A stretch of 64,000 nucleotides of DNA from an uncultured archaeon (GTDB lineage Archaea; Aenigmatarchaeota; Aenigmatarchaeia; CG10238-14): the NCBI GenBank assembly GCA_964392445.1, contig CAYMPD010000001.1:1-64000 (forward strand), given 5' to 3'. Positions 14,701 to 48,368 of the stretch are shown piece after piece (within the stretch, counting starts at the first letter, position 1; each line of letters opens with the position of its first letter). The notes under the pieces were generated by a model. The model was given only the letters and a program-made list of their open reading frames with translations. It ran no database searches and was not told where the DNA came from. A program made the translations under genes and the position numbers.

Positions 14701-15533
14701 TTGCCAACAGTTTTGTTTTCATTATCTTTTACTTCGTCGTTTATTTCAAGAGCTACTTGCGCTTCAAGATTTTCTTGGATGGTCGTAGTTGTACTTGTAA
14801 AGGTGGTAGAGGTGGTAGTTGTTGTTAATTCTCCCTCTGTTGTTTGAGTTGCTGTAACTTTACTGGTGGTTGTTGTTTCTTGCTCATTTGTTTGAGTGGT
14901 TGTCACACTACTTGTTGTTAATTTTTCAGTTTTAGTAACGGTTGTTTGTATTTCGGTGGATGTTACTTTTTCTGTCGTTGTAGTAACAATTGTGGTTGAA
15001 GTACTTGTATTTATTGTCTCGTTAAATTCTTGAGTTTGATCTGTTTCATCAGTAAAATTAGATTCGGTTGTAGTGGTGGTTTGATTATCAGTTGCTATCG
15101 TCTCGTTGACTTCATCCTCACCGGTAGAATTAGATTCAAATTCAGAAGGACCAGGTTGAGGAATGGAAATGCCCTGGTCTTCTTCTGAAGAAAGAACAAA
15201 GAACATAATCGAATGAGTAAAGTTCGTAGAATTTAACTTAGCAGAATAATTGCCATATTCTGTTAGACCTAAACCGTAATTATATTCGCCCTCACAATTA
15301 AGAGAATCCATCAAAATCGTGGAACTGTTATCAGGATATAAAACAATCAGTGTAAAATTTGTGTTAAGAGTTCCATTAATCGATATTAATGCGGTTTCAT
15401 TGATAGAGTAAAACTTTTTATCAGTTGTAATATTGAGTTCTTGCGAAACTACTAAGTAGGGGAAGAAGAGTGTTGAAAAAAATATTATTATAGCGATAAA
15501 TCTAATATCGAACTTCGGCAGTTGCATTTCCAT
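16..15533 (-). CDS. Giant secreted multidomain surface protein/adhesin, at least ~5,170 aa, 3'-truncated at contig end
   Basis: ATG at 15533 or 15527 (GAGGA lies 6 nt before 15527). Signal peptide MQLPKFDIRFIAIIIFFSTLFFPYLVVS|QE. The same frame is open in every segment I translated (near 18, 4200, 4500, 7680, 10080-11940, 13200, 14600-15533). Its absence from the ORF track fits an ORF with no stop before the window edge. Many N-x-S/T sequons. Confidence 0.93.
6070..6470 (-). other. F5/8 type C (discoidin)-like domain 2 of giant protein
   Basis: NIALSTNGGTVISASS...ENAIDG...AWSS...PWIKIQFNDTYYISHIKW...GAQEIEVYG; paralogous to 8920-9330. Confidence 0.78.
8920..9330 (-). other. F5/8 type C (discoidin)-like domain 1 of giant protein
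   Basis: NIALSTNGGTALSVSS...ENAIDG...SW.S...PWIKIQF...ISHIKW...GAKEIEVYG. Confidence 0.78.
9950..12270 (-). other. DUF2341-like plus LamG (concanavalin A-like) module of giant protein; LamG split by an insertion
   Basis: WWDISWRYRK...YIWVKVPQI...IWIYYGN (DUF2341-like). VHHLNE...YDSTIYGNNGT...FDGTDDYINV...STWI is the LamG N-half. WYFVTYD...LFLDG...FFNGTIDEVQVSN...RTADWI is the LamG C-half. Confidence 0.82.
10265..11615 (-). repeat. Three tandem C1q/TNF-like domains (~150 aa each) inserted within the LamG domain
   Basis: Each repeat has F..(aromatic)..H...PSRV...TGWY.+.Y, L.KNG and L..GDY+EL (LSLESGDYLEL, VYLEDGDYIEL, THLNEGDYVEL). A 38-bp identical tract occurs at 10561-10598 and 11023-11060. 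Confidence 0.75.
12900..13740 (-). other. FG-GAP/VCBS beta-propeller region of giant protein
   Basis: Five Ca-binding DxDxDG-type motifs: GDFDNDGDYD, SDFNNDGNLD, GDFNEDGCMD, GDFDGDGHYD, FDYDHDGNLD. Confidence 0.88.
14770..15110 (-). other. Thr-rich mucin-like low-complexity stalk of giant protein
   Basis: Translation ...DNQTTTTTESNFTDETDQTQEFNETINTSTSTTIVTTTTEKVTSTEIQTTVTK...ELTTTTTSTTFTSTTTTIQE. Confidence 0.85.
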
Positions 15534-41748: not shown

Positions 41749-42993
41749 TTAATTTGGAGTGGTCAAAACTACATCAACTATATCTTCTTGTAAAGGTCGG
41801 GTAAGATTTCTTGTATTGGTTCCAAAATCAACTGATGCATTTATCTCCGCAACATAAAAAGACATATTTTCTCTAAGATAAGTACTAATTCTTCTTTGAA
41901 GTTCTTTATATTCTTCACTTGACCTATATTCTCCAAAAATCCTATCGAGATTTGCTAGGTCTCCCTCAAATTTTTCATCATATAAAATACCCAATAAATC
42001 AGTACCAAATCTCTCTACACGTGAATCTAATGTCGCCCTCATCTTATCTTTAGCCCCTTCAATCTCTGAATCCTTATAATCCGATACTCCTCTCACAACT
42101 TCATAAATTCCTCTTCTGACCTCTAAATCGTCACAAACAGGTATTATATCCACTCCTACTATTAAAGGACCTTGATCATTTTCTATATAGGAAAGCATTG
42201 CTCTTACAGAACTTAAGGATATGTCCTCTACTATTTGTGGAGAATCTATGCCGCCCACAGGAATTGCTCCAAGTGCTGTATTTTTAGCTTCCTCTTCATC
42301 ACTTCTACCAACTCTAGCCAGACACCCTAAATATTCAGGTTTTCTCCCCCTTTTCATAGAAACTAGACATCTTAAATCAAGTGGATGAGGTAAAAATTCT
42401 TCAAGAAAAAGTCCCCCCGGATTTATACTATTTCTATAGAATGCACTAGGGACTTCTCCTCTTGGTTTACCCCGCTGAGAACTACAAAAATCAATGAAGT
42501 CTTCTTTTCCGTTTACTTTAATTATAGATTTTCCTCTGCTCCCAGAAGTCGGTTTTACTGCTACCGGAAAACCTAACTCTTCCTGTATAGAATCTGCTAT
42601 TTCTTCTATATTTTCTTCATTTCCTCTAATTGTTCCACCAACAATTTTCAAAGGATGTTTTGTTAAGTGATAAGGAGCAGTTGGTATTTCTTGATCCTTA
42701 AATACTTCTTTCATGGCCGGTTTATATCTACAAAACCCTTCCACCGAATAAGAACTTAAAACTGTTATTCCAGACTCTTCCAACTCTTGAGCGAAATTAA
42801 CTCTTCCTCTCCTATGCACCAATCTATTCACGACTTTATCTAGATCTTCTAGAAACTCTTTCTCTATTCCCGTTCTATGAGAATAATGCATTATAGTAGG
42901 TATAACTCCCCTATTTAGAAAAGCTTGGAGTATTAAAATTTCATCTACATAAAGTTCTGTATCAAGATAATCAACGGCAAGTCCTATTGTCAT
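41749..42993 (-). CDS. ATP-grasp ligase, RimK/LysX-like, with ~90-aa insertion
   Basis: YKPAMKEVF..IPT, PVAVKPTSGSRG, FLEEFL, DLRCLV, KNTALG, GVDII...AEIN. Confidence 0.75.
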   Translation of the reverse strand: MTIGLAVDYLDTELYVDEILILQAFLNRGVIPTIMHYSHRTGIEKEFLEDLDKVVNRLVHRRGRVNFAQELEESGITVLSSYSVEGFCRYKPAMKEVFKDQEIPTAPYHLTKHPLKIVGGTIRGNEENIEEIADSIQEELGFPVAVKPTSGSRGKSIIKVNGKEDFIDFCSSQRGKPRGEVPSAFYRNSINPGGLFLEEFLPHPLDLRCLVSMKRGRKPEYLGCLARVGRSDEEEAKNTALGAIPVGGIDSPQIVEDISLSSVRAMLSYIENDQGPLIVGVDIIPVCDDLEVRRGIYEVVRGVSDYKDSEIEGAKDKMRATLDSRVERFGTDLLGILYDEKFEGDLANLDRIFGEYRSSEEYKELQRRISTYLRENMSFYVAEINASVDFGTNTRNLTRPLQEDIVDVVLTTPN

Positions 42994-43015
42994 ATCAAAA
43001 CAAATTAAAATATAA

Positions 43016-43025
43016 CTTTTAAATA
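43016..43025. promoter_or_regulatory. Candidate bidirectional TATA box
   Basis: TTTTAAATA lies ~30 nt from the lysX-like ATG (42993, leaderless) on the minus strand and ~25-30 nt from the AAGGTG SD (43047) of the leader ORF on the plus strand. Confidence 0.5.
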
Positions 43026-43058
43026 TCTGACCCTATAAATTGTGTAAAGGTGTAATAA

Positions 43059-43145
43059 ATGAATGAACTAGACTTTTTTTGTGTTTTCCGAGTTTTATCT
43101 AGTTCGATCACTGTTTCTAAGAAGAAGTTAAAGAAGAGACGATAA
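43059..43145 (+). CDS. Candidate Lys/Arg-rich leader peptide MNELDFFCVFRVLSSSITVSKKKLKKRR
   Basis: ATG 43059 preceded by AAGGTG; 28 codons ending AAG AAG AAG TTA AAG AAG AGA CGA TAA; lies upstream of a lys-like operon. Confidence 0.45.
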   Translation: MNELDFFCVFRVLSSSITVSKKKLKKRR

Positions 43146-43161
43146 TCGGTCATTGTTTTTT

Positions 43162-43208
43162 GGACTGTGCGTCTCATGGGCTATCAGGTTCGAATCCTAA
43201 CAGTTCTT
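43162..43208 (+). ncRNA. tRNA-like minihelix element, copy 1
   Basis: GGACTG-(16 nt)-TCAGG TTCGAAT CCTAA-CAGTTC: 6-bp acceptor-like stem plus T-arm (one C.A mismatch). Confidence 0.55.
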
Positions 43209-43213
43209 TCTAG

Positions 43214-43807
43214 ATGGATGATAAAATGGCACCAAGAATAATACTAATAGATAATAATACTCAATACTTGAGTGAATTGACTGGATATTTAAATGATCTC
43301 GGGACAGAAGTAGATTTAACAAGCCCATTGTGTAATTTCCAGATCGATGAGTACGATGGTGCAATTGTTTCTGGAGGAAGAATGCCTCCAGGTAATCATA
43401 AACCTATTTATGACTGGTATTCTGAACTCTTTGAAGAAGCCGGGAAAAGTGGGATTCCTGTACTTGCAATATGTTTTGGTCACTTGATCTTTGGATTAAC
43501 ACAAGGAGGTAGTATTAAAAGGATGGATCTAGGAGAAGAAGGTATTATAGAGGTAAATTTTGAAGAAGGTTATCCTCTAGCACCTGACGGACACAGATTA
43601 AGAGTTTTCGTATCCCGTGATAGAATATTGCAAAGAGTACCTCCTTCTTCAAATGTATGGGGGGTTTCTTCTAAGTCTAGTGCTGAGGCGTTGAGTTATG
43701 GGTCTATATTTACTGTAGGTTTTCACCCAGAAGTACGCGAATCTAGGAATCAAGGTCAGATGATACTAGATGGATTTTATCAAATATGTGGAGGAAGTGA
43801 AAGATAA
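43214..43807 (+). CDS. Class I glutamine amidotransferase (GuaA/TrpG-like)
   Basis: IILIDN, SGG, nucleophile AICFGH, FHPEV (Cys-His-Glu triad intact). Confidence 0.88.
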   Translation: MDDKMAPRIILIDNNTQYLSELTGYLNDLGTEVDLTSPLCNFQIDEYDGAIVSGGRMPPGNHKPIYDWYSELFEEAGKSGIPVLAICFGHLIFGLTQGGSIKRMDLGEEGIIEVNFEEGYPLAPDGHRLRVFVSRDRILQRVPPSSNVWGVSSKSSAEALSYGSIFTVGFHPEVRESRNQGQMILDGFYQICGGSER

Positions 43808-44646
43808 TGTATGAGAGGCCCTTATTAGTAGTAAAAATAGGTGGGAGTTTAATTCCCCCATGTGGTGAGTTACAAGACACTGAACAACTCAGAGGTATCG
43901 CGAAAGATATAGCGGGGTTGTATCCAAGGAACGATTTCGTAATTTTACATGGTGGTGGAAATAGGGTTACTTATAGAATGAAAGAAATGGGTAAAGAACC
44001 TCAATTTATAACATCTAGAAATGGTATGAGAAGTAGATACACTGACAGAGGAACTATGGATATTTTCGCTGACGTGATGGGAGATATAAACCAAGAGTTA
44101 GTCGATTTACTAACTACCCAAGGTCTAAGTTCAAGGGGGTTTTATAATGGTAGTAGCCCATTAATGGGTAGAAGAAAAAAGGCCCTTAGAGATTACCGTG
44201 ATGGTAAGGTCCTTCTAGTTAGAGATGATTACAGTGGTAGATTATATGGTTTAGATAGAAATTGTTTGTTAGATTCTCTTGAAAGGGAAGAAATGCCGGT
44301 TATCTCGCCTGTGGCTGTTGGTGAAGAAGAAGAATTTTTAAATGTAGATGGGGATACTGCTGCTGCATATACAGCCTCTGAACTTGGAGCAAGAACATTA
44401 ATTCTTATTACTGATGTTACAGGCGTTTTAGATGGTGATAATGAGTTAGTAAGAAGAGTACCATATCAGGATTTAGATAGTTGGATTAGTAGAGTTGATG
44501 GTGGTATGAAAAGAAAATTAATGGCGAGCAAAGAGGCTATAGAAAGGGGCTTAGAGAAAGTTTTAATTTGTGGTGGACGGGAGGATCGTCCTTTATCAAG
44601 AGCTTTGAGATATGAAAATGGTACTGTAATAAAAGGTGATAATTAA
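43807..44646 (+). CDS. [LysW]-aminoadipate/glutamate kinase-like (LysZ/ArgB)
   Basis: VVKIGG, HGGG, GMRSRYT, RKK, YSGR, PVISPVA, LNVDGD, TDVTGVL, GGMKRKL; resembles archaeal LysZ throughout. Confidence 0.88.
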   Translation: MYERPLLVVKIGGSLIPPCGELQDTEQLRGIAKDIAGLYPRNDFVILHGGGNRVTYRMKEMGKEPQFITSRNGMRSRYTDRGTMDIFADVMGDINQELVDLLTTQGLSSRGFYNGSSPLMGRRKKALRDYRDGKVLLVRDDYSGRLYGLDRNCLLDSLEREEMPVISPVAVGEEEEFLNVDGDTAAAYTASELGARTLILITDVTGVLDGDNELVRRVPYQDLDSWISRVDGGMKRKLMASKEAIERGLEKVLICGGREDRPLSRALRYENGTVIKGDN

Positions 44647-44652
44647 TGTTAG

Positions 44653-45894
44653 GTGAACATCAAAAGATATGATAATTTGAGGGGTAGAGAAGTACCTATA
44701 TCAATAGTATTAAGAGAGTTCACTCAAGGTTATCCATTATATTTTGGTTATAGAGGGGATAAATCTTTCCAAGAACTTCTCTCTTTATTATTTGCAACAG
44801 GTGTCCATTCAATAGAGATAGACAATCCTTATCAGGGGGACTTTTCCGATGGCCATGTACCGATTAAAACAGGACATGTACAATTAGCAGGAAAATTGTA
44901 TGGTGACAGAGTATTATCACATCTTAGGTTAGGGCCAGGTATACCTGATATAAAATACTACTTAGAATATATGGAAGAGATTCAGAAAACTGGTGTTGGA
45001 TTATTCACAACACTTGACTACGAAAAAATAGGTTATGAATCTCAAGAAGATCAATTGAAAGATGTGGAGAACGGAATAGGAAGGTTAATAGAATCCGGAG
45101 TTCAAACAGTTAGATTTAGTGTTGAAAATGGTGTTTACTATTTCCAAAACGGTGAAAGAAATGAGATAGAAAATCTAATAAGAGTAGCAATTGAAGCCGG
45201 CGCCAATACTATAGGACTCCCTAAAACCAATGGAAAAAATAGTGTTGATATGTACAGATTTGGTCAAGAAGTAGGGACTTTGGTCCCAGACGATATTAGT
45301 ATTCGCTTACACTGTCATGGAACCCCCCCCTATCTTTTTGTTCTGAATGGATTGGCAGGGTTGTTAACTTCAGGCCATGAAAATGTAGTTGTAGAGACCA
45401 CACTTGAAAGATCTTCCCATCCTAATAGCGTTGAGATACCAGGTATAGTTGAAATGAATGATAGATTGAGAGAAGGAGGTGTAAAAACTGGGGTAGAACC
45501 TAATTTTCTTGTAAGAATCGTTAGTGATGCTTTAGATATGATTTATCGACCGTCTCATTTACCACCTTATGAATTGGCAATTGGAGGACACGCAGCGAAA
45601 AAAATGAATGGTTCTAAAGACTATGATGGTCAAATTCAAAGAAATAATCATAAGAGAATTTTTTCTCACACGACAGGAAAAAATATCTTAAGAGATTTAC
45701 TAGAACAGTATGGTATACAGGTACATCCTAAGAATATCCCAAAAGTAGCAACTGAAATCAGAAGGCTTATGTCAGGGGATTATCCAGATATTAATCCTAG
45801 GATATATTTAGATGAAGATGGGGTTCCTAGATTGGATAATATTCTAACGAAAATTTCAGAATTAAGGGGTATCCCAATCAATGGGGGTGATTAA
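44653..45894 (+). CDS. Divergent DRE-TIM metallolyase, homocitrate synthase-like
   Basis: SIVLREFTQ (compare DSTLREGEQ), IEI, HCHG metal motif, GGH...Y, HTTGK; many other positions degenerate. Confidence 0.6.
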   Translation: MNIKRYDNLRGREVPISIVLREFTQGYPLYFGYRGDKSFQELLSLLFATGVHSIEIDNPYQGDFSDGHVPIKTGHVQLAGKLYGDRVLSHLRLGPGIPDIKYYLEYMEEIQKTGVGLFTTLDYEKIGYESQEDQLKDVENGIGRLIESGVQTVRFSVENGVYYFQNGERNEIENLIRVAIEAGANTIGLPKTNGKNSVDMYRFGQEVGTLVPDDISIRLHCHGTPPYLFVLNGLAGLLTSGHENVVVETTLERSSHPNSVEIPGIVEMNDRLREGGVKTGVEPNFLVRIVSDALDMIYRPSHLPPYELAIGGHAAKKMNGSKDYDGQIQRNNHKRIFSHTTGKNILRDLLEQYGIQVHPKNIPKVATEIRRLMSGDYPDINPRIYLDEDGVPRLDNILTKISELRGIPINGGD

Positions 45895-45918
45895 AATACC
45901 ATAAATTCAGTTGACTGT

Positions 45919-45968
45919 AGAATTGTGCATTATTTGTGGCCTATCAGGTTCAAATCCTGACAATTCTT
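45919..45968 (+). ncRNA. tRNA-like minihelix element, copy 2
   Basis: AGAATTG-(18 nt)-TCAGG TTCAAAT CCTGA-CAATTCT: perfect 7-bp acceptor-like stem plus perfect 5-bp T-arm. Confidence 0.62.
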
Positions 45969-45981
45969 TCAAAAATTAGAG

Positions 45982-46278
45982 GTGGAGAAAATGGAAGATA
46001 TCTATGAAAATAATGGATTATCTATATCAGTGGTTGATTTAGATGGTTTTAGAAATTCATTAAGGACTTTAGGGAATAGAACAACGTTAGAAAGAGTAAT
46101 AATAGAAAGTTTTCTTATCTACGGATATCAACCACAAATTGAAATTACTGGGATCCGAGTCGGTGATAGATACTTTTGGGGAGAAGAAACCCCAAAAGCA
46201 GAACCTATCTATCACGGAGTAGTACAAGGGTGTAGTTTATATGGACAAGAAATTGTAGTGGAGGGGGGGTTGGTATGA
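45982..46278 (+). CDS. Hypothetical protein (likely start at ATG 45991)
   Basis: 98-aa ORF with GAGGTGG SD; no motif recognised. Confidence 0.65.
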   Translation: MEKMEDIYENNGLSISVVDLDGFRNSLRTLGNRTTLERVIIESFLIYGYQPQIEITGIRVGDRYFWGEETPKAEPIYHGVVQGCSLYGQEIVVEGGLV

Positions 46279-46334: not shown

Positions 46335-46655
46335 GTGTTGACCGGAAGGATTGTTAGTGGATTAGACTGTAGTGGATATTACAGGGGATTCTTAGTTTAT
46401 ACCTTAGGGACCAATTGCGAAGAAATATTACACCTTCATTGTATCCCAGAACAGGAAATTAAAGAGGGAATTGATGAAAAGAAAGTTATAGATCGATTGG
46501 GCTACGAAAAGGAAGTTACAGAATTCGAGGGTAGTTACACATTAACTCTCTCTGGTAAAAAAATTGGTGCCCTACATGTAGATACCCCGTCAAATTTAAC
46601 CAGCAAATCCGATGTTCAAACTTTATTAAGAAAAAGTGGATATCAGTTCAGCTAA
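46335..46655 (+). CDS. Hypothetical protein; possibly extends to ATG 46275 through an in-frame TAG
   Basis: 106-aa ORF; in-frame ATG 46275 overlaps the previous stop (ATGA), with TAG at 46332-46334. Confidence 0.6.
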   Translation: MLTGRIVSGLDCSGYYRGFLVYTLGTNCEEILHLHCIPEQEIKEGIDEKKVIDRLGYEKEVTEFEGSYTLTLSGKKIGALHVDTPSNLTSKSDVQTLLRKSGYQFS

Positions 46656-46670
46656 ACCATAAAAACTTGG

Positions 46671-48368
46671 GTGACTAAAATGAGAAGTATGAAAGAAGAT
46701 GAGACTATGTTCTGGTCAGACAGAATTGCGAATTTATTGATAGAAAGAAAAAAATATAACTACATAGACAAAAACACTCAAAAACCAGAGAAATTTCAAG
46801 TAAAAAGTAGTACTTCTATATCAGGTGTTCCACACATAGGTAATGCTTCTGATGTGATAAGACATGATGCCGTGGTCAGATCTCTAAAAGAAATGGGAGA
46901 GAAAGTACATTTTATCTGGGTATCTGAGGATATGGATCCTTTAAGGAAAGTACCTGCCGGAATTCCTAAAGAATTTAGTAAATATTTGGGTATGCCTGTA
47001 TCAGATTTACCTTGCCCAGAGGGTTGTTGTGAGAGTTATGTCAAGCACTTCACTAGATTATTCATAGAAAGTCTTCATAAGCATTTTGGAACTGAACCGG
47101 AATTAATTTCAACCACAGATGCTTACAAAAATGGGAAATTTTATCCTTATGTTAAATTGTCTTTGGAAAAGATTGATATAATAAAAAAGATACTTAACAA
47201 ACATAGAACCAATCCTCTACCTAAAGTTTGGAGTCCCTTAAAACCAGTTTGTGATAATTGCGGGAAGATAATAACTACCAAGATAGATGATGTAAATAAA
47301 GATGTTGTTAGTTACAGATGTGAAGATTACTCCTTTAAAGAATTTGGTCAGAAAGCCTACACTAAAGTTGAGGGTTGTGAACATAAAGGCGGATGTGACA
47401 TTACTAAAGGTAATTATAAATTGTTATGGAAGATCGAATGGGCAGCTGAGTGGCCTTTGTGGAAGATTAATTTCGAAGGTGCGGGAAAAGAACACTATAT
47501 GCCAGGTGGTTCCTTCTGGAATGCTGGCGAAATTTGTGAAAAAGTGTTTGATTGGCCTGAACCTTATCCTGGAGAAAATGAAATCCAGCCTTATGAGTAC
47601 ATTTTAGTAGACGGAGAAAAAATGTCTGCATCTAAAGGTAATGTGGTCGCAACATGGGAATGGCCTGAATTTGCTCCGCCTGAAATACTTAGAATGCTCC
47701 TTTTAAAGAGACCAAATAAGACAAGAGGATTCTCCTATGAAAAAATACCCGAAATGGTTGATGAATTTGATGAATTAAAGGAAATCTATTATGGCCATAA
47801 AAAGATTGAAAATGAAAAGGAATTAAGAAATTTGAAAAAACTTTACGAAGTTTCTAGGATCGAAGAAAAATATCATTATACCCCTAGCGTTTCGTTCAGT
47901 TACTTGGCTTTAATAAGTCAGATGATTCCTGAATCTACTACAAGTAATTTTGATAGAGTAATTCAAGTTCTCAAAAAAACCGAACATATTACAGAAGATA
48001 ATGAAGAGATTAGAACTCATGTAAAGAAGAGACTGGAAATGGCTGGAGAGTGGATGAAAAGATATGGTCCCGAAGAGGATAGGATAAAATTATTGAAAAA
48101 GGTACCAAAAGAAATAGTTGGGAAATTGAGTGAAGAACAGAAATCGTCCTTGAAAGAACTTTCGGGATTTATCCAAAAAGACTTTACAAGAAAAGAAATG
48201 TGGGATGAAATAAAATCAACAGCGGAAAAGTACGGAATAAAACCCGGAAAAATATTCCAAGCAGCTTATCTAGTTCTAATTGGAAGAAAAAGAGGACCAA
48301 GAATGATACCTTTTATTCAACTATTGGATAGAGATTTCGTGATTAAGAGATTTAGTTTGGAAGATTAA
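46671..48368 (+). CDS. lysS: Class I lysyl-tRNA synthetase
   Basis: STSISGVPHIGN, DMDPLRKVP, KLLWKIEW, EGAGKEH, PYEYI, KMSASKGN. Confidence 0.95.
   Translation: MTKMRSMKEDETMFWSDRIANLLIERKKYNYIDKNTQKPEKFQVKSSTSISGVPHIGNASDVIRHDAVVRSLKEMGEKVHFIWVSEDMDPLRKVPAGIPKEFSKYLGMPVSDLPCPEGCCESYVKHFTRLFIESLHKHFGTEPELISTTDAYKNGKFYPYVKLSLEKIDIIKKILNKHRTNPLPKVWSPLKPVCDNCGKIITTKIDDVNKDVVSYRCEDYSFKEFGQKAYTKVEGCEHKGGCDITKGNYKLLWKIEWAAEWPLWKINFEGAGKEHYMPGGSFWNAGEICEKVFDWPEPYPGENEIQPYEYILVDGEKMSASKGNVVATWEWPEFAPPEILRMLLLKRPNKTRGFSYEKIPEMVDEFDELKEIYYGHKKIENEKELRNLKKLYEVSRIEEKYHYTPSVSFSYLALISQMIPESTTSNFDRVIQVLKKTEHITEDNEEIRTHVKKRLEMAGEWMKRYGPEEDRIKLLKKVPKEIVGKLSEEQKSSLKELSGFIQKDFTRKEMWDEIKSTAEKYGIKPGKIFQAAYLVLIGRKRGPRMIPFIQLLDRDFVIKRFSLED

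Follow-up and report, generated by a model that had tools for sequence, protein, structure and literature searches.

We analysed a 64,000-nt stretch of DNA from an uncultured archaeon of the Aenigmatarchaeota (hereafter the window; positions 1 to 64,000 of the forward strand of contig CAYMPD010000001.1, assembly GCA_964392445.1), in which two short tRNA-like minihelices, each composed of an acceptor-like stem and a T-arm, directly precede genes of a cluster that includes a class I lysyl-tRNA synthetase (LysRS). The genome holding the window, named G000 here, comprises 1.2 Mb in 54 contigs with 34% GC. Genomes carry G-labels, and contigs of relatives, several of them metagenome contigs, carry L-labels; G002 and G004 (Candidatus Aenigmarchaeota archaeon CG_4_9_14_3_um_filter_37_18) belong to the same genus as G000, G008 to another genus of the same family, and G016 to the same family. 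Findings on structure, conservation, covariation, origin, gene context and enzyme genes were obtained from DNA alone, from which transcription, cleavage and benefit are inferred. The sequencing runs listed as containing this stretch come from one microbial-mat study, and all of them are recorded as DNA, none as RNA.

Two acceptor-stem and T-arm minihelices in the window

The two copies are composed as follows.

43162-43206 plus the trailing T 43207 in the discriminator position, forward strand: minihelix copy 1, with a 6-bp acceptor-like stem, UG, a 14-nt connector and a T-arm (5′ strand 43162-43167; UG 43168-43169; connector 43170-43183; T-arm 43184-43200; 3′ strand 43201-43206)
45920-45966 plus A45919, which pairs with T45967, forward strand: minihelix copy 2, with a 7-bp acceptor-like stem, UG, a 16-nt connector and a T-arm (5′ strand 45920-45925; UG 45926-45927; connector 45928-45943; T-arm 45944-45960; 3′ strand 45961-45966)

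Each copy has a 17-nt T-arm whose 3′ strand runs without interruption into the 3′ strand of the outer stem, and the T-loop reads TTCGAAT in copy 1 and TTCAAAT in copy 2. The copies are unlike at several positions and by one indel, and both keep the fold. The positions and fold given for them in a preliminary description of the window were confirmed, as was the compensatory difference between a C-G pair in copy 1 and a T-A pair in copy 2. Its layout of the arms was borne out for the T-arm and the stem, except that the stem comprises 6 bp (7 bp in copy 2) and that pair 50:64 forms, as C-G, in copy 2 only, the T-arm of which is fully paired. The distance of 6-20 nt to a start codon has to be corrected to about 19-24 nt, measured to the likely starts ATG 43226 and ATG 45991.

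A T-arm bearing the GGTTCRANYCC motif combined with an acceptor-like stem, the fold of a t-element, was found in both copies and in seven homologues, with covariance-model scores of 59-83 bits (74-78 bits for copy 1). The distance from the UG to the T-stem is only 14-23 nt, and the D-arm and anticodon arm that complete the cloverleaf of a functional tRNA are lacking. A 24-nt degenerate pattern covering the T-arm and the 3′ strand matched twice in the window, at copies 1 and 2 (0.00 matches expected from 100 shuffles), and matched nothing else in the whole G000 genome. ARAGORN and the Rfam model RF00005 found the real tRNAs of the window and did not find the minihelices, even at E up to 10. The earlier statement that the minihelices match none of the tRNAs in the window extends to all 48 ARAGORN-called tRNAs of G000, none of which has their AT-rich acceptor stem or T-arm, and when the genome was scanned outside its tRNA genes for motifs resembling a T-arm, no further canonical motif with an acceptor stem in cis came up. 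In single-sequence minimum-free-energy folding the outer stem was kept and the T-arm was not (z-scores -0.6 to -2.7); single-sequence thermodynamics is uninformative for these minihelices.

Conservation and covariation of the minihelix

Homologues were searched by BLAST and two covariance models, and the exact pattern was run over whole genome and metagenome collections. The element was recovered in three genomes (G002, G004 and G008) and on the metagenome contigs L068, L069, L078/L087 and L102/L103. A search of 118 genomes of the order placed it in one family only, and across the collections the exact pattern located these elements only in Aenigmatarchaeota contigs; its other matches proved to be real tRNA-His genes, an artefact of the TGTG in the pattern, or unrelated sequences. 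A purine-rich leader pattern run across the order was abandoned, as chance coding matches swamped the result, and homologues of the HCS-like protein encoded between the two copies fell into only three clusters and gave no extra loci.

The comparative set comprised nine distinct minihelix sequences from related lineages, that is, both G000 copies and the seven homologues. Across them 90.9% of stem cells pair, compared with 30-57% in controls with slid partners, and three pairs (acceptor positions 2 and 4 and T-stem pair 51:63) are changed on both sides yet still paired. The covariation score was reached in 3 of 500 column shuffles, a control that exaggerates significance when the sequences are kin. 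Mean pairwise identity amounted to 0.91 in the T-arm, 0.81-0.84 in the acceptor strands and 1.0 at the UG, and to 0.53 in the connector, 0.54-0.64 in the immediate flanks and 0.36 downstream. Within the limits of this small sample, a T-arm at 0.91 amid flanks at 0.36-0.64, together with the compensatory pairs, is not the pattern of neutral decay, and it suggests that the fold is structured and selected, as had been proposed. The check suggested in the preliminary description, a covariance-model search followed by a covariation test, thus returned homologues at the same locus as well as the three compensatory pairs.

The element is kept at loci whose LysRS is 35-78% identical to that of G000, and also in G008, where the LysRS is of class II. 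Every genome of G000's own genus with an assembled locus carries it; the searches of G001 and G003 gave no hit, and these two genomes are not counter-examples because the LysRS gene of G001 lies at the end of a contig and G003 yielded neither a class I nor a class II LysRS. The minihelix is absent from L104, L106, L108-L113, G012 and G019.

The minihelix descends from a tRNA-Lys(UUU) gene in front of LysRS

The origin of the element is indicated by G016, where one finds, in this order, a leader with clear homology to the G008 leader, 19 nt, a real tRNA gene (Rfam tRNA score 60.1 bits) and, immediately after it, a Shine-Dalgarno (SD) sequence and the class I LysRS gene. With its anticodon loop CUUUUA, and an intron of 25-26 nt in the canonical place, this tRNA is a tRNA-Lys(UUU). 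When G016 is aligned with the minihelix loci, the leader is in register, and so is the tRNA from a remnant of the anticodon-stem 3′ strand onward, through the UGG variable loop and the T-arm to the acceptor 3′ strand and, past it, an A-rich spacer and the SD; the minihelices have no counterpart of the D-arm, the intron or the 5′ half of the anticodon arm. G016 has an ordinary intron-less tRNA-Lys(UUU) elsewhere as well, of which the LysRS-linked gene is a paralogue, and the differences between the two are exactly the features that the paralogue shares with the minihelices, that is, the TTCGAAT T-loop and an acceptor stem like those of G004 and L068. G000 likewise has an intact tRNA-Lys(UUU) of its own, on another contig.

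The orthologous site and the residual homology to an intact tRNA gene mark the minihelix as a tRNA relic, and because the tRNA-Lys(UUU) of G016 occupies the same site between leader and LysRS, the minihelix is a truncated descendant of that tRNA. On the simplest reading of the alignment, it would have arisen by an internal deletion in place that joined positions 1-9 to roughly exon 2. Positions 10 to about 37 of a redundant tRNA-Lys gene before LysRS would have been lost, as would one base pair of its acceptor stem, and the gene would have kept the acceptor 5′ strand, U8 and G9 together with the 3′ remnant of the anticodon stem, the UGG remnant of the variable loop, the T-arm and the acceptor 3′ strand. 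This acceptor/T-arm half appears to have been maintained since the deletion. The proposal of an undescribed system, made when only the window was at hand, gives way to that of a truncated tRNA-Lys(UUU) descendant whose intact gene stands at the same site in G016.

Two other derivations were rejected. A split-tRNA half of the Nanoarchaeum type does not fit a 5′ acceptor strand that pairs in cis and an upstream sequence that is T-rich, not GC-rich (no search was aimed at a partner 5′ half), and a mimic of tRNA-Lys by sequence does not fit a minihelix unlike the acceptor stems of the host tRNA-Lys.

A conserved leader with a lysine-rich mini-ORF precedes the element

Three further features were identified upstream of the two copies.

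43018-43025, forward strand: TATA-like box TTTAAATA, probable promoter for transcription of the leader
43049-43161, forward strand: conserved leader, with a 5′ motif, a 28-codon mini open reading frame (mini-ORF, 43059-43145) and a T6 run (43156-43161)
45891-45898, forward strand: TATA-like box TTAAAATA, 22-29 nt upstream of the first base of copy 2

The G000 leader can be aligned with the leaders of G002, G004, G008, L068, L078, L069, L102 and G016, and it runs in the order TTTAAATA box, 5′ motif, variable AT-rich stretch, purine-rich run, short conserved motif and T-rich tract. In 7 of 7 leader-bearing loci, the distance from the TTTAAATA box to the 5′ motif downstream is about 23-26 nt; on sequence grounds the box probably drives transcription of the leader. 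The leader is present before the element at all single-copy loci and before copy 1 of G000, not before copy 2.

The purine-rich run reads K-(K)-L-K-K-K-R-stop, and the G000 mini-ORF ends in K-K-K-L-K-K-R-R; this Lys-rich tail is conserved in relatives, and in G016 it lies upstream of the real tRNA-Lys. The Leu codon inside the Lys run varies synonymously between relatives (TTA, CTG or TTG), a pattern of codon change that favours translation of the frame, and several relatives are without a clean start codon in it. An alternative pairing of the Lys-codon run with the pyrimidine-rich connector of the minihelix was significant at three of seven loci (p 0.012 for copy 1 of G000; 0 of 500 shuffles in both G004 and L069).

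Other readings of the leader were discarded. Use of the Lys-codon motif as the TATA box of a tRNA promoter is unlikely, given that G004 and L069 have CTG in place of TTA; a C/D-box reading was dropped since no conserved D box was seen by eye; and an antisense 52-aa open reading frame (ORF) at 43019-43177 shows similarity no greater than nucleotide conservation predicts. Rfam searches of 42900-46200 at E up to 10 gave chance matches only (CRISPR-DR, Spd-sr37 and a weak C/D snoRNA), with no match to a T-box or lysine riboswitch.

The leader 5′ motif (43049-43090 of the window) also occurs at L145:1500-1632 and on L094 (G017), L106 and L109, and across the family it precedes LysRS genes of class I or II, with a tRNA-like part or none. 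The motif may be a LysRS-specific regulatory site or an element of the 5′ untranslated region (5′ UTR).

The element heads operons with LysRS or LysW-pathway genes

The genes around the two copies in G000 are listed below.

41749-42993, reverse strand: divergent ATP-grasp gene, weakly RimK/LysX-like, between the rhomboid gene and the leader
43214 or 43226 to 43807, forward strand: GATase (Pfam/NCBIfam matches)
43807-44646, forward strand: LysZ-like amino-acid kinase (Pfam/NCBIfam matches)
44653-45894, forward strand: divergent HCS/IPMS-like DRE-TIM protein (Pfam/NCBIfam matches)
45991-46278, forward strand: orf98, downstream cistron
46335-46655, forward strand: orf106, downstream cistron
46671-48368, forward strand: class I LysRS (TIGR00467, 390 bits)

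At every locus the element stands at the head of a string of same-strand genes ending in LysRS and Cdc6/Orc1, and it always heads an operon with LysRS and/or LysW-pathway genes. The element and its flanking genes are on one strand, the conserved TATA box stands some 140 nt before the element, and its spacing to the SD or start is about 10-25 nt throughout, as after the real tRNA of G016. The order small ORFs, LysRS, Cdc6 is syntenic in G002, G004, L078 and L102. Between the element and LysRS, an HCS-like gene and a small ORF are found in G002 and L078, and only small ORFs in G004, G008, L069 and L102; protein-atlas look-ups of orf106 and of a 143-aa ORF gave nothing usable. The usual upstream neighbour of the element locus is a rhomboid protease gene, which adjoins the leader directly in L102, L078 and G004, where the ATP-grasp gene is absent from this place. 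These relatives indicate that the ATP-grasp gene was a separate gain in G000.

On L068 (1789-2104), a textbook LysW gene (zinc ribbon, C-terminal EDWGE) and then a LysX-like gene lie directly behind the leader and minihelix. The upstream gene on L068 encodes a helix-turn-helix regulator and is not the rhomboid gene, and L068 may therefore represent a second locus type with the same leader.

The LysRS itself is of class I at most loci, a class I-AlaX fusion in G004 and of class II in G008. The G004 fusion (L042:6991-9507, reverse strand) joins class I LysRS to an AlaX-like editing domain (C-terminal tRNA-synt_2c part and tRNA_SAD), and a separate AlaX-like gene directly follows LysRS on L106 (6762-7463), L109 (2423-3115) and L113 (6522-7223). 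A bacterial-type class II LysRS replaces class I at the leader-linked locus in G008 (L045:3-1043, reverse strand) and in G012 (L145:1633-3066), the latter matching NCBIfam lysS_bact above cut-off.

A predicted mRNA-processing signal and its alternatives

Three roles had been proposed for the element, as an mRNA-maturation signal, a LysRS decoy or an aminoacyl acceptor, and the first of them fits best, its cleavage being a prediction from sequence. We tentatively favour the reading that the minihelix is a t-element-like processing signal for RNase P and tRNase Z within an mRNA, a reading on which our judgement is nearly evenly divided. The transcript would start at the TATA box about 140 nt upstream and run through the leader with its Lys-rich mini-ORF; the minihelix would be cut at its 5′ boundary by RNase P and just past its 3′ strand by tRNase Z, which would detach the leader and leave the first cistron with a short 5′ UTR bearing the SD, as tRNA excision must do in G016. 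In G000, copy 2 would provide another cut site before orf98-orf106-LysRS or mark where a second transcript begins there. The G-rich loop remnant could substitute for the D-loop in the minihelix.

A parallel comes from G016, in which excision of the tRNA-Lys necessarily separates the leader from the LysRS message and leaves a 5′ UTR of about 15 nt with the SD. The minihelix retains the same SD spacing and the parts that RNase P and tRNase Z need (stacked acceptor stem and T-arm, T-loop, U8). For RNase P, tRNase Z and the CCA-adding enzyme, an acceptor/T-arm minihelix is established as the smallest sufficient substrate. G000 encodes an RNase Z at G000:C1:64870-65760 (309 bits, above cut-off) and an archaeal CCA-adding enzyme (460 bits), and a candidate RNase P RNA of 209 nt at G000:C17:25027-25235 (forward strand; 68 bits, E 3e-19) spans the whole archaeal model and looks like a reduced form.

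Several observations weigh against a processing signal. T-stem pair 50:64 is mismatched in 8 of the 9 sequences, L102 has a U.U mismatch in the acceptor stem, and the 6-bp stem gives a stack of 11 bp, compared with 12 in a tRNA. L106, L109 and G012 have the leader 5′ motif before LysRS and no minihelix, and G017 has a decayed remnant only, so sister lineages can do without the element. The candidate RNase P RNA, apart from being short, falls below the Rfam gathering score of 84. Finally, the sample is small and of related sequences, a setting that also flatters the shuffle control, and the statistics of conservation and covariation are suggestive, not conclusive.

Some of these points would equally suit a functionless, slowly decaying tRNA-Lys pseudogene whose apparent conservation reflects short divergence time. 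The patchy distribution, the mere remnant in G017, the mismatches at 50:64 and in L102, and the restriction to one family of the order all point that way. We nevertheless consider this explanation unlikely, because the flanks are 36-64% identical while the T-arm is 91% and the UG 100% identical, because three stem pairs have changed on both sides with pairing kept, because the element outlived both the swap from class I to class II LysRS (G008) and the duplication in G000, and because it is present in every genome of its own genus with an assembled locus. If it were only a decaying relic, the element would be a minor curiosity.

The constant company of lysine genes raises another option, also unlikely in our view, that the minihelix is a regulatory RNA of a lysine regulon, acting either as a Lys leader-peptide attenuator or translational switch by the SD, or as a tRNA mimic that LysRS or some other tRNA-binding protein would bind for feedback control. 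In favour, all operons headed by the element contain LysRS of class I or II, LysW-LysX (L068), or LysZ-like or HCS-like genes; a mini-ORF ending in 4-5 Lys codons, with the synonymous Leu change inside the run, lies about 16-25 nt upstream; and the complementarity of Lys run and connector is significant at three of seven loci. Against regulation of this kind, the complementarity is not significant at the other four loci, copy 2 has no leader, the Lys-rich frame has no start codon that could be used in G002 and is interrupted in other relatives, a simple alternative hairpin would not need an invariant canonical T-loop, and Rfam holds no T-box or lysine riboswitch match here. A mimic is further disfavoured by the missing anticodon arm and by an AT-rich acceptor stem and U discriminator that are unlike host tRNA-Lys. 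The decoy role for LysRS proposed in the preliminary description accordingly keeps its support in the constant linkage to LysRS and loses it in the structure. The proposal of an aminoacyl acceptor for the enzymes of the cassette fails, as most element loci (G004, G008, L069 and L102) are without those enzymes. The connector UGG as a T-box-like site binding NCCA was also rejected, since the next base does not covary with the fixed discriminator.

A combination of processing and regulation would make the leader and minihelix together an archaeal lysine sensor, in which a ribosome that stalls or advances on the Lys run would set the run-connector pairing and hence the tRNA-like fold and its cleavage by RNase P and tRNase Z; we regard this as rather improbable. 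If true, such a sensor would couple the charging of tRNA-Lys to maturation of LysRS and LysW-pathway mRNAs, with the tRNA relic as the output domain, and no leader-peptide attenuation-like control would have been described in Archaea before it.

It is very unlikely that the minihelix acts as a stand-alone small RNA, excised, perhaps CCA-tailed and working in trans, for instance to titrate out a tRNA-binding factor. Stable RNAs with non-encoded C residues can build up from plant t-elements (PMC1920247), and G000 has the TATA-like box 22-29 nt upstream of copy 2 and the gene for a CCA-adding enzyme; the element is, against this, bound to a single locus, always directly before the SD, at 1-2 copies per genome.

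The second copy in G000

The nearest relative, L102 (LysRS 78% identical), has a single element and lacks the three-gene GATase-LysZ-HCS-like block at this position. Its leader matches the upstream flank of copy 1, to which the G002 leader is also orthologous, and on its downstream side the spacer, the SD and the first small ORF correspond to what follows copy 2, the SD flank being nearly identical. It follows from this flank pattern that G000 gained the GATase-LysZ-like-HCS-like block and a duplicate element. Recombination at or between elements may explain the frequent rearrangement of the locus.

The same geometry, with direct copies flanking a 2.7-kb three-gene block absent from L102, the ancestral upstream flank at copy 1 and the ancestral downstream flank at copy 2, and with the genes immediately 3′ of the element differing in almost every relative, would suit a recombination (att-like) site for cassette insertion whose attL and attR are the two G000 copies, but this is the least probable of the explanations, since neither the block nor the DNA beside it has an integrase or recombinase gene, each copy has a 5′ acceptor strand and pairs with itself, the element arose in place from a tRNA gene and not from a duplicated host tRNA 3′ end, the cargo is functionally coherent with the operon, and the copies have diverged by several positions and the indel. 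With no recombinase and with each copy self-paired, a classical att scar is therefore unlikely; direct repeats do flank the insertion, and neither a recombinase in the segment nor a host tRNA match was found. The earlier remark that the minihelices are not simple att remnants holds, on the 5′ acceptor strand in cis, the lack of a match to a host tRNA 3′ end and the origin in place. An integron attC-like reading was dropped, there being no integrase and no array.

Relation to known tRNA-like elements and leaders

The closest precedents are the t-elements of plant mitochondria, which were found via the GGTTCRANYCC motif and have their ends where mRNAs end (Forner et al. 2007, PMC1920247). Like the minihelix, they are degenerate and tRNA-derived, with a GGTTCRANYCC T-arm and an acceptor-like stem, and they adjoin coding regions on the upstream or downstream side, where they are thought or shown to direct the RNase P and RNase Z cuts that make mRNA ends, a job done at other genes by real tRNAs (PMC1920247). 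The minihelix differs from them in belonging to a DPANN archaeon and not an organelle, in being smaller, with neither D-arm nor anticodon arm, in its place in the leader of an aminoacyl-tRNA synthetase/lysine operon, in being known from DNA alone, and in that its parent tRNA is still visible at the orthologous site in a relative.

In Haloferax volcanii, a tRNA-like element before 5S rRNA and other t-elements of Haloferax are known (Hoelzle et al. 2008, 2012, as cited in PMC4326828); according to that source, the structure lies in a longer transcript and cuts by tRNase Z and RNase P set the 5′ end of the downstream RNA. In PMC4326828, t-elements were also placed between a promoter and a reporter in H. 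volcanii. The 5S rRNA element precedes an rRNA and was shown experimentally, whereas the minihelix has two arms, stands before an mRNA, is linked to LysRS and was read from DNA. On the favoured reading the minihelix would be a minimal archaeal form of the tRNA-derived t-elements, new as such but not a new system.

An acceptor stem and T-arm without a normal anticodon arm is also found in the tRNA-like domain of tmRNA and in the MALAT1 mascRNA, both recognised by tRNA enzymes. Neither has homology to the minihelix in sequence or position; tmRNA is aminoacylated and acts in trans, and mascRNA is eukaryotic. Leader-peptide attenuation is known from E. coli pheM-pheST and from a lysine cluster of Thermus thermophilus. 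Like the element locus, such attenuators place a short ORF rich in cognate codons, followed by structured RNA, before synthetase or biosynthesis genes; they are, however, bacterial and use terminator/antiterminator hairpins, whereas here the structured part is a tRNA relic, no consistent terminator is present and the ORF is broken in some relatives.

The element documents how a tRNA gene has become a selected two-arm minihelix, with the intact parent at the same site in a sister lineage. The acceptor/T-arm "top half" of tRNA has long been discussed in models of tRNA origin and in minihelix work in vitro, and the element offers a natural example of it. If the predicted processing is true, mRNA processing in the style of tRNA punctuation would extend to DPANN archaea and to a protein-coding operon. 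To our knowledge, amino-acid-responsive leaders are essentially unknown in Archaea, and the site between a Lys-codon-rich leader and LysRS/lysine genes is a testable candidate for such control.

Two minor observations concern other tRNA-like sequences met during the searches. At about 15250-15390 of G000:C13 (forward strand) lies a probable intron-containing tRNA with a 7-nt acceptor pair and a good T-arm, which ARAGORN does not call. On L064, L065, L072, L073 and L084, from a freshwater metagenome, a sequence resembling a tRNA 3′ half recurs, with a canonical T-arm, a CCA end and a hairpin upstream; these sequences are unrelated to the minihelix family and were matched only through the search pattern.

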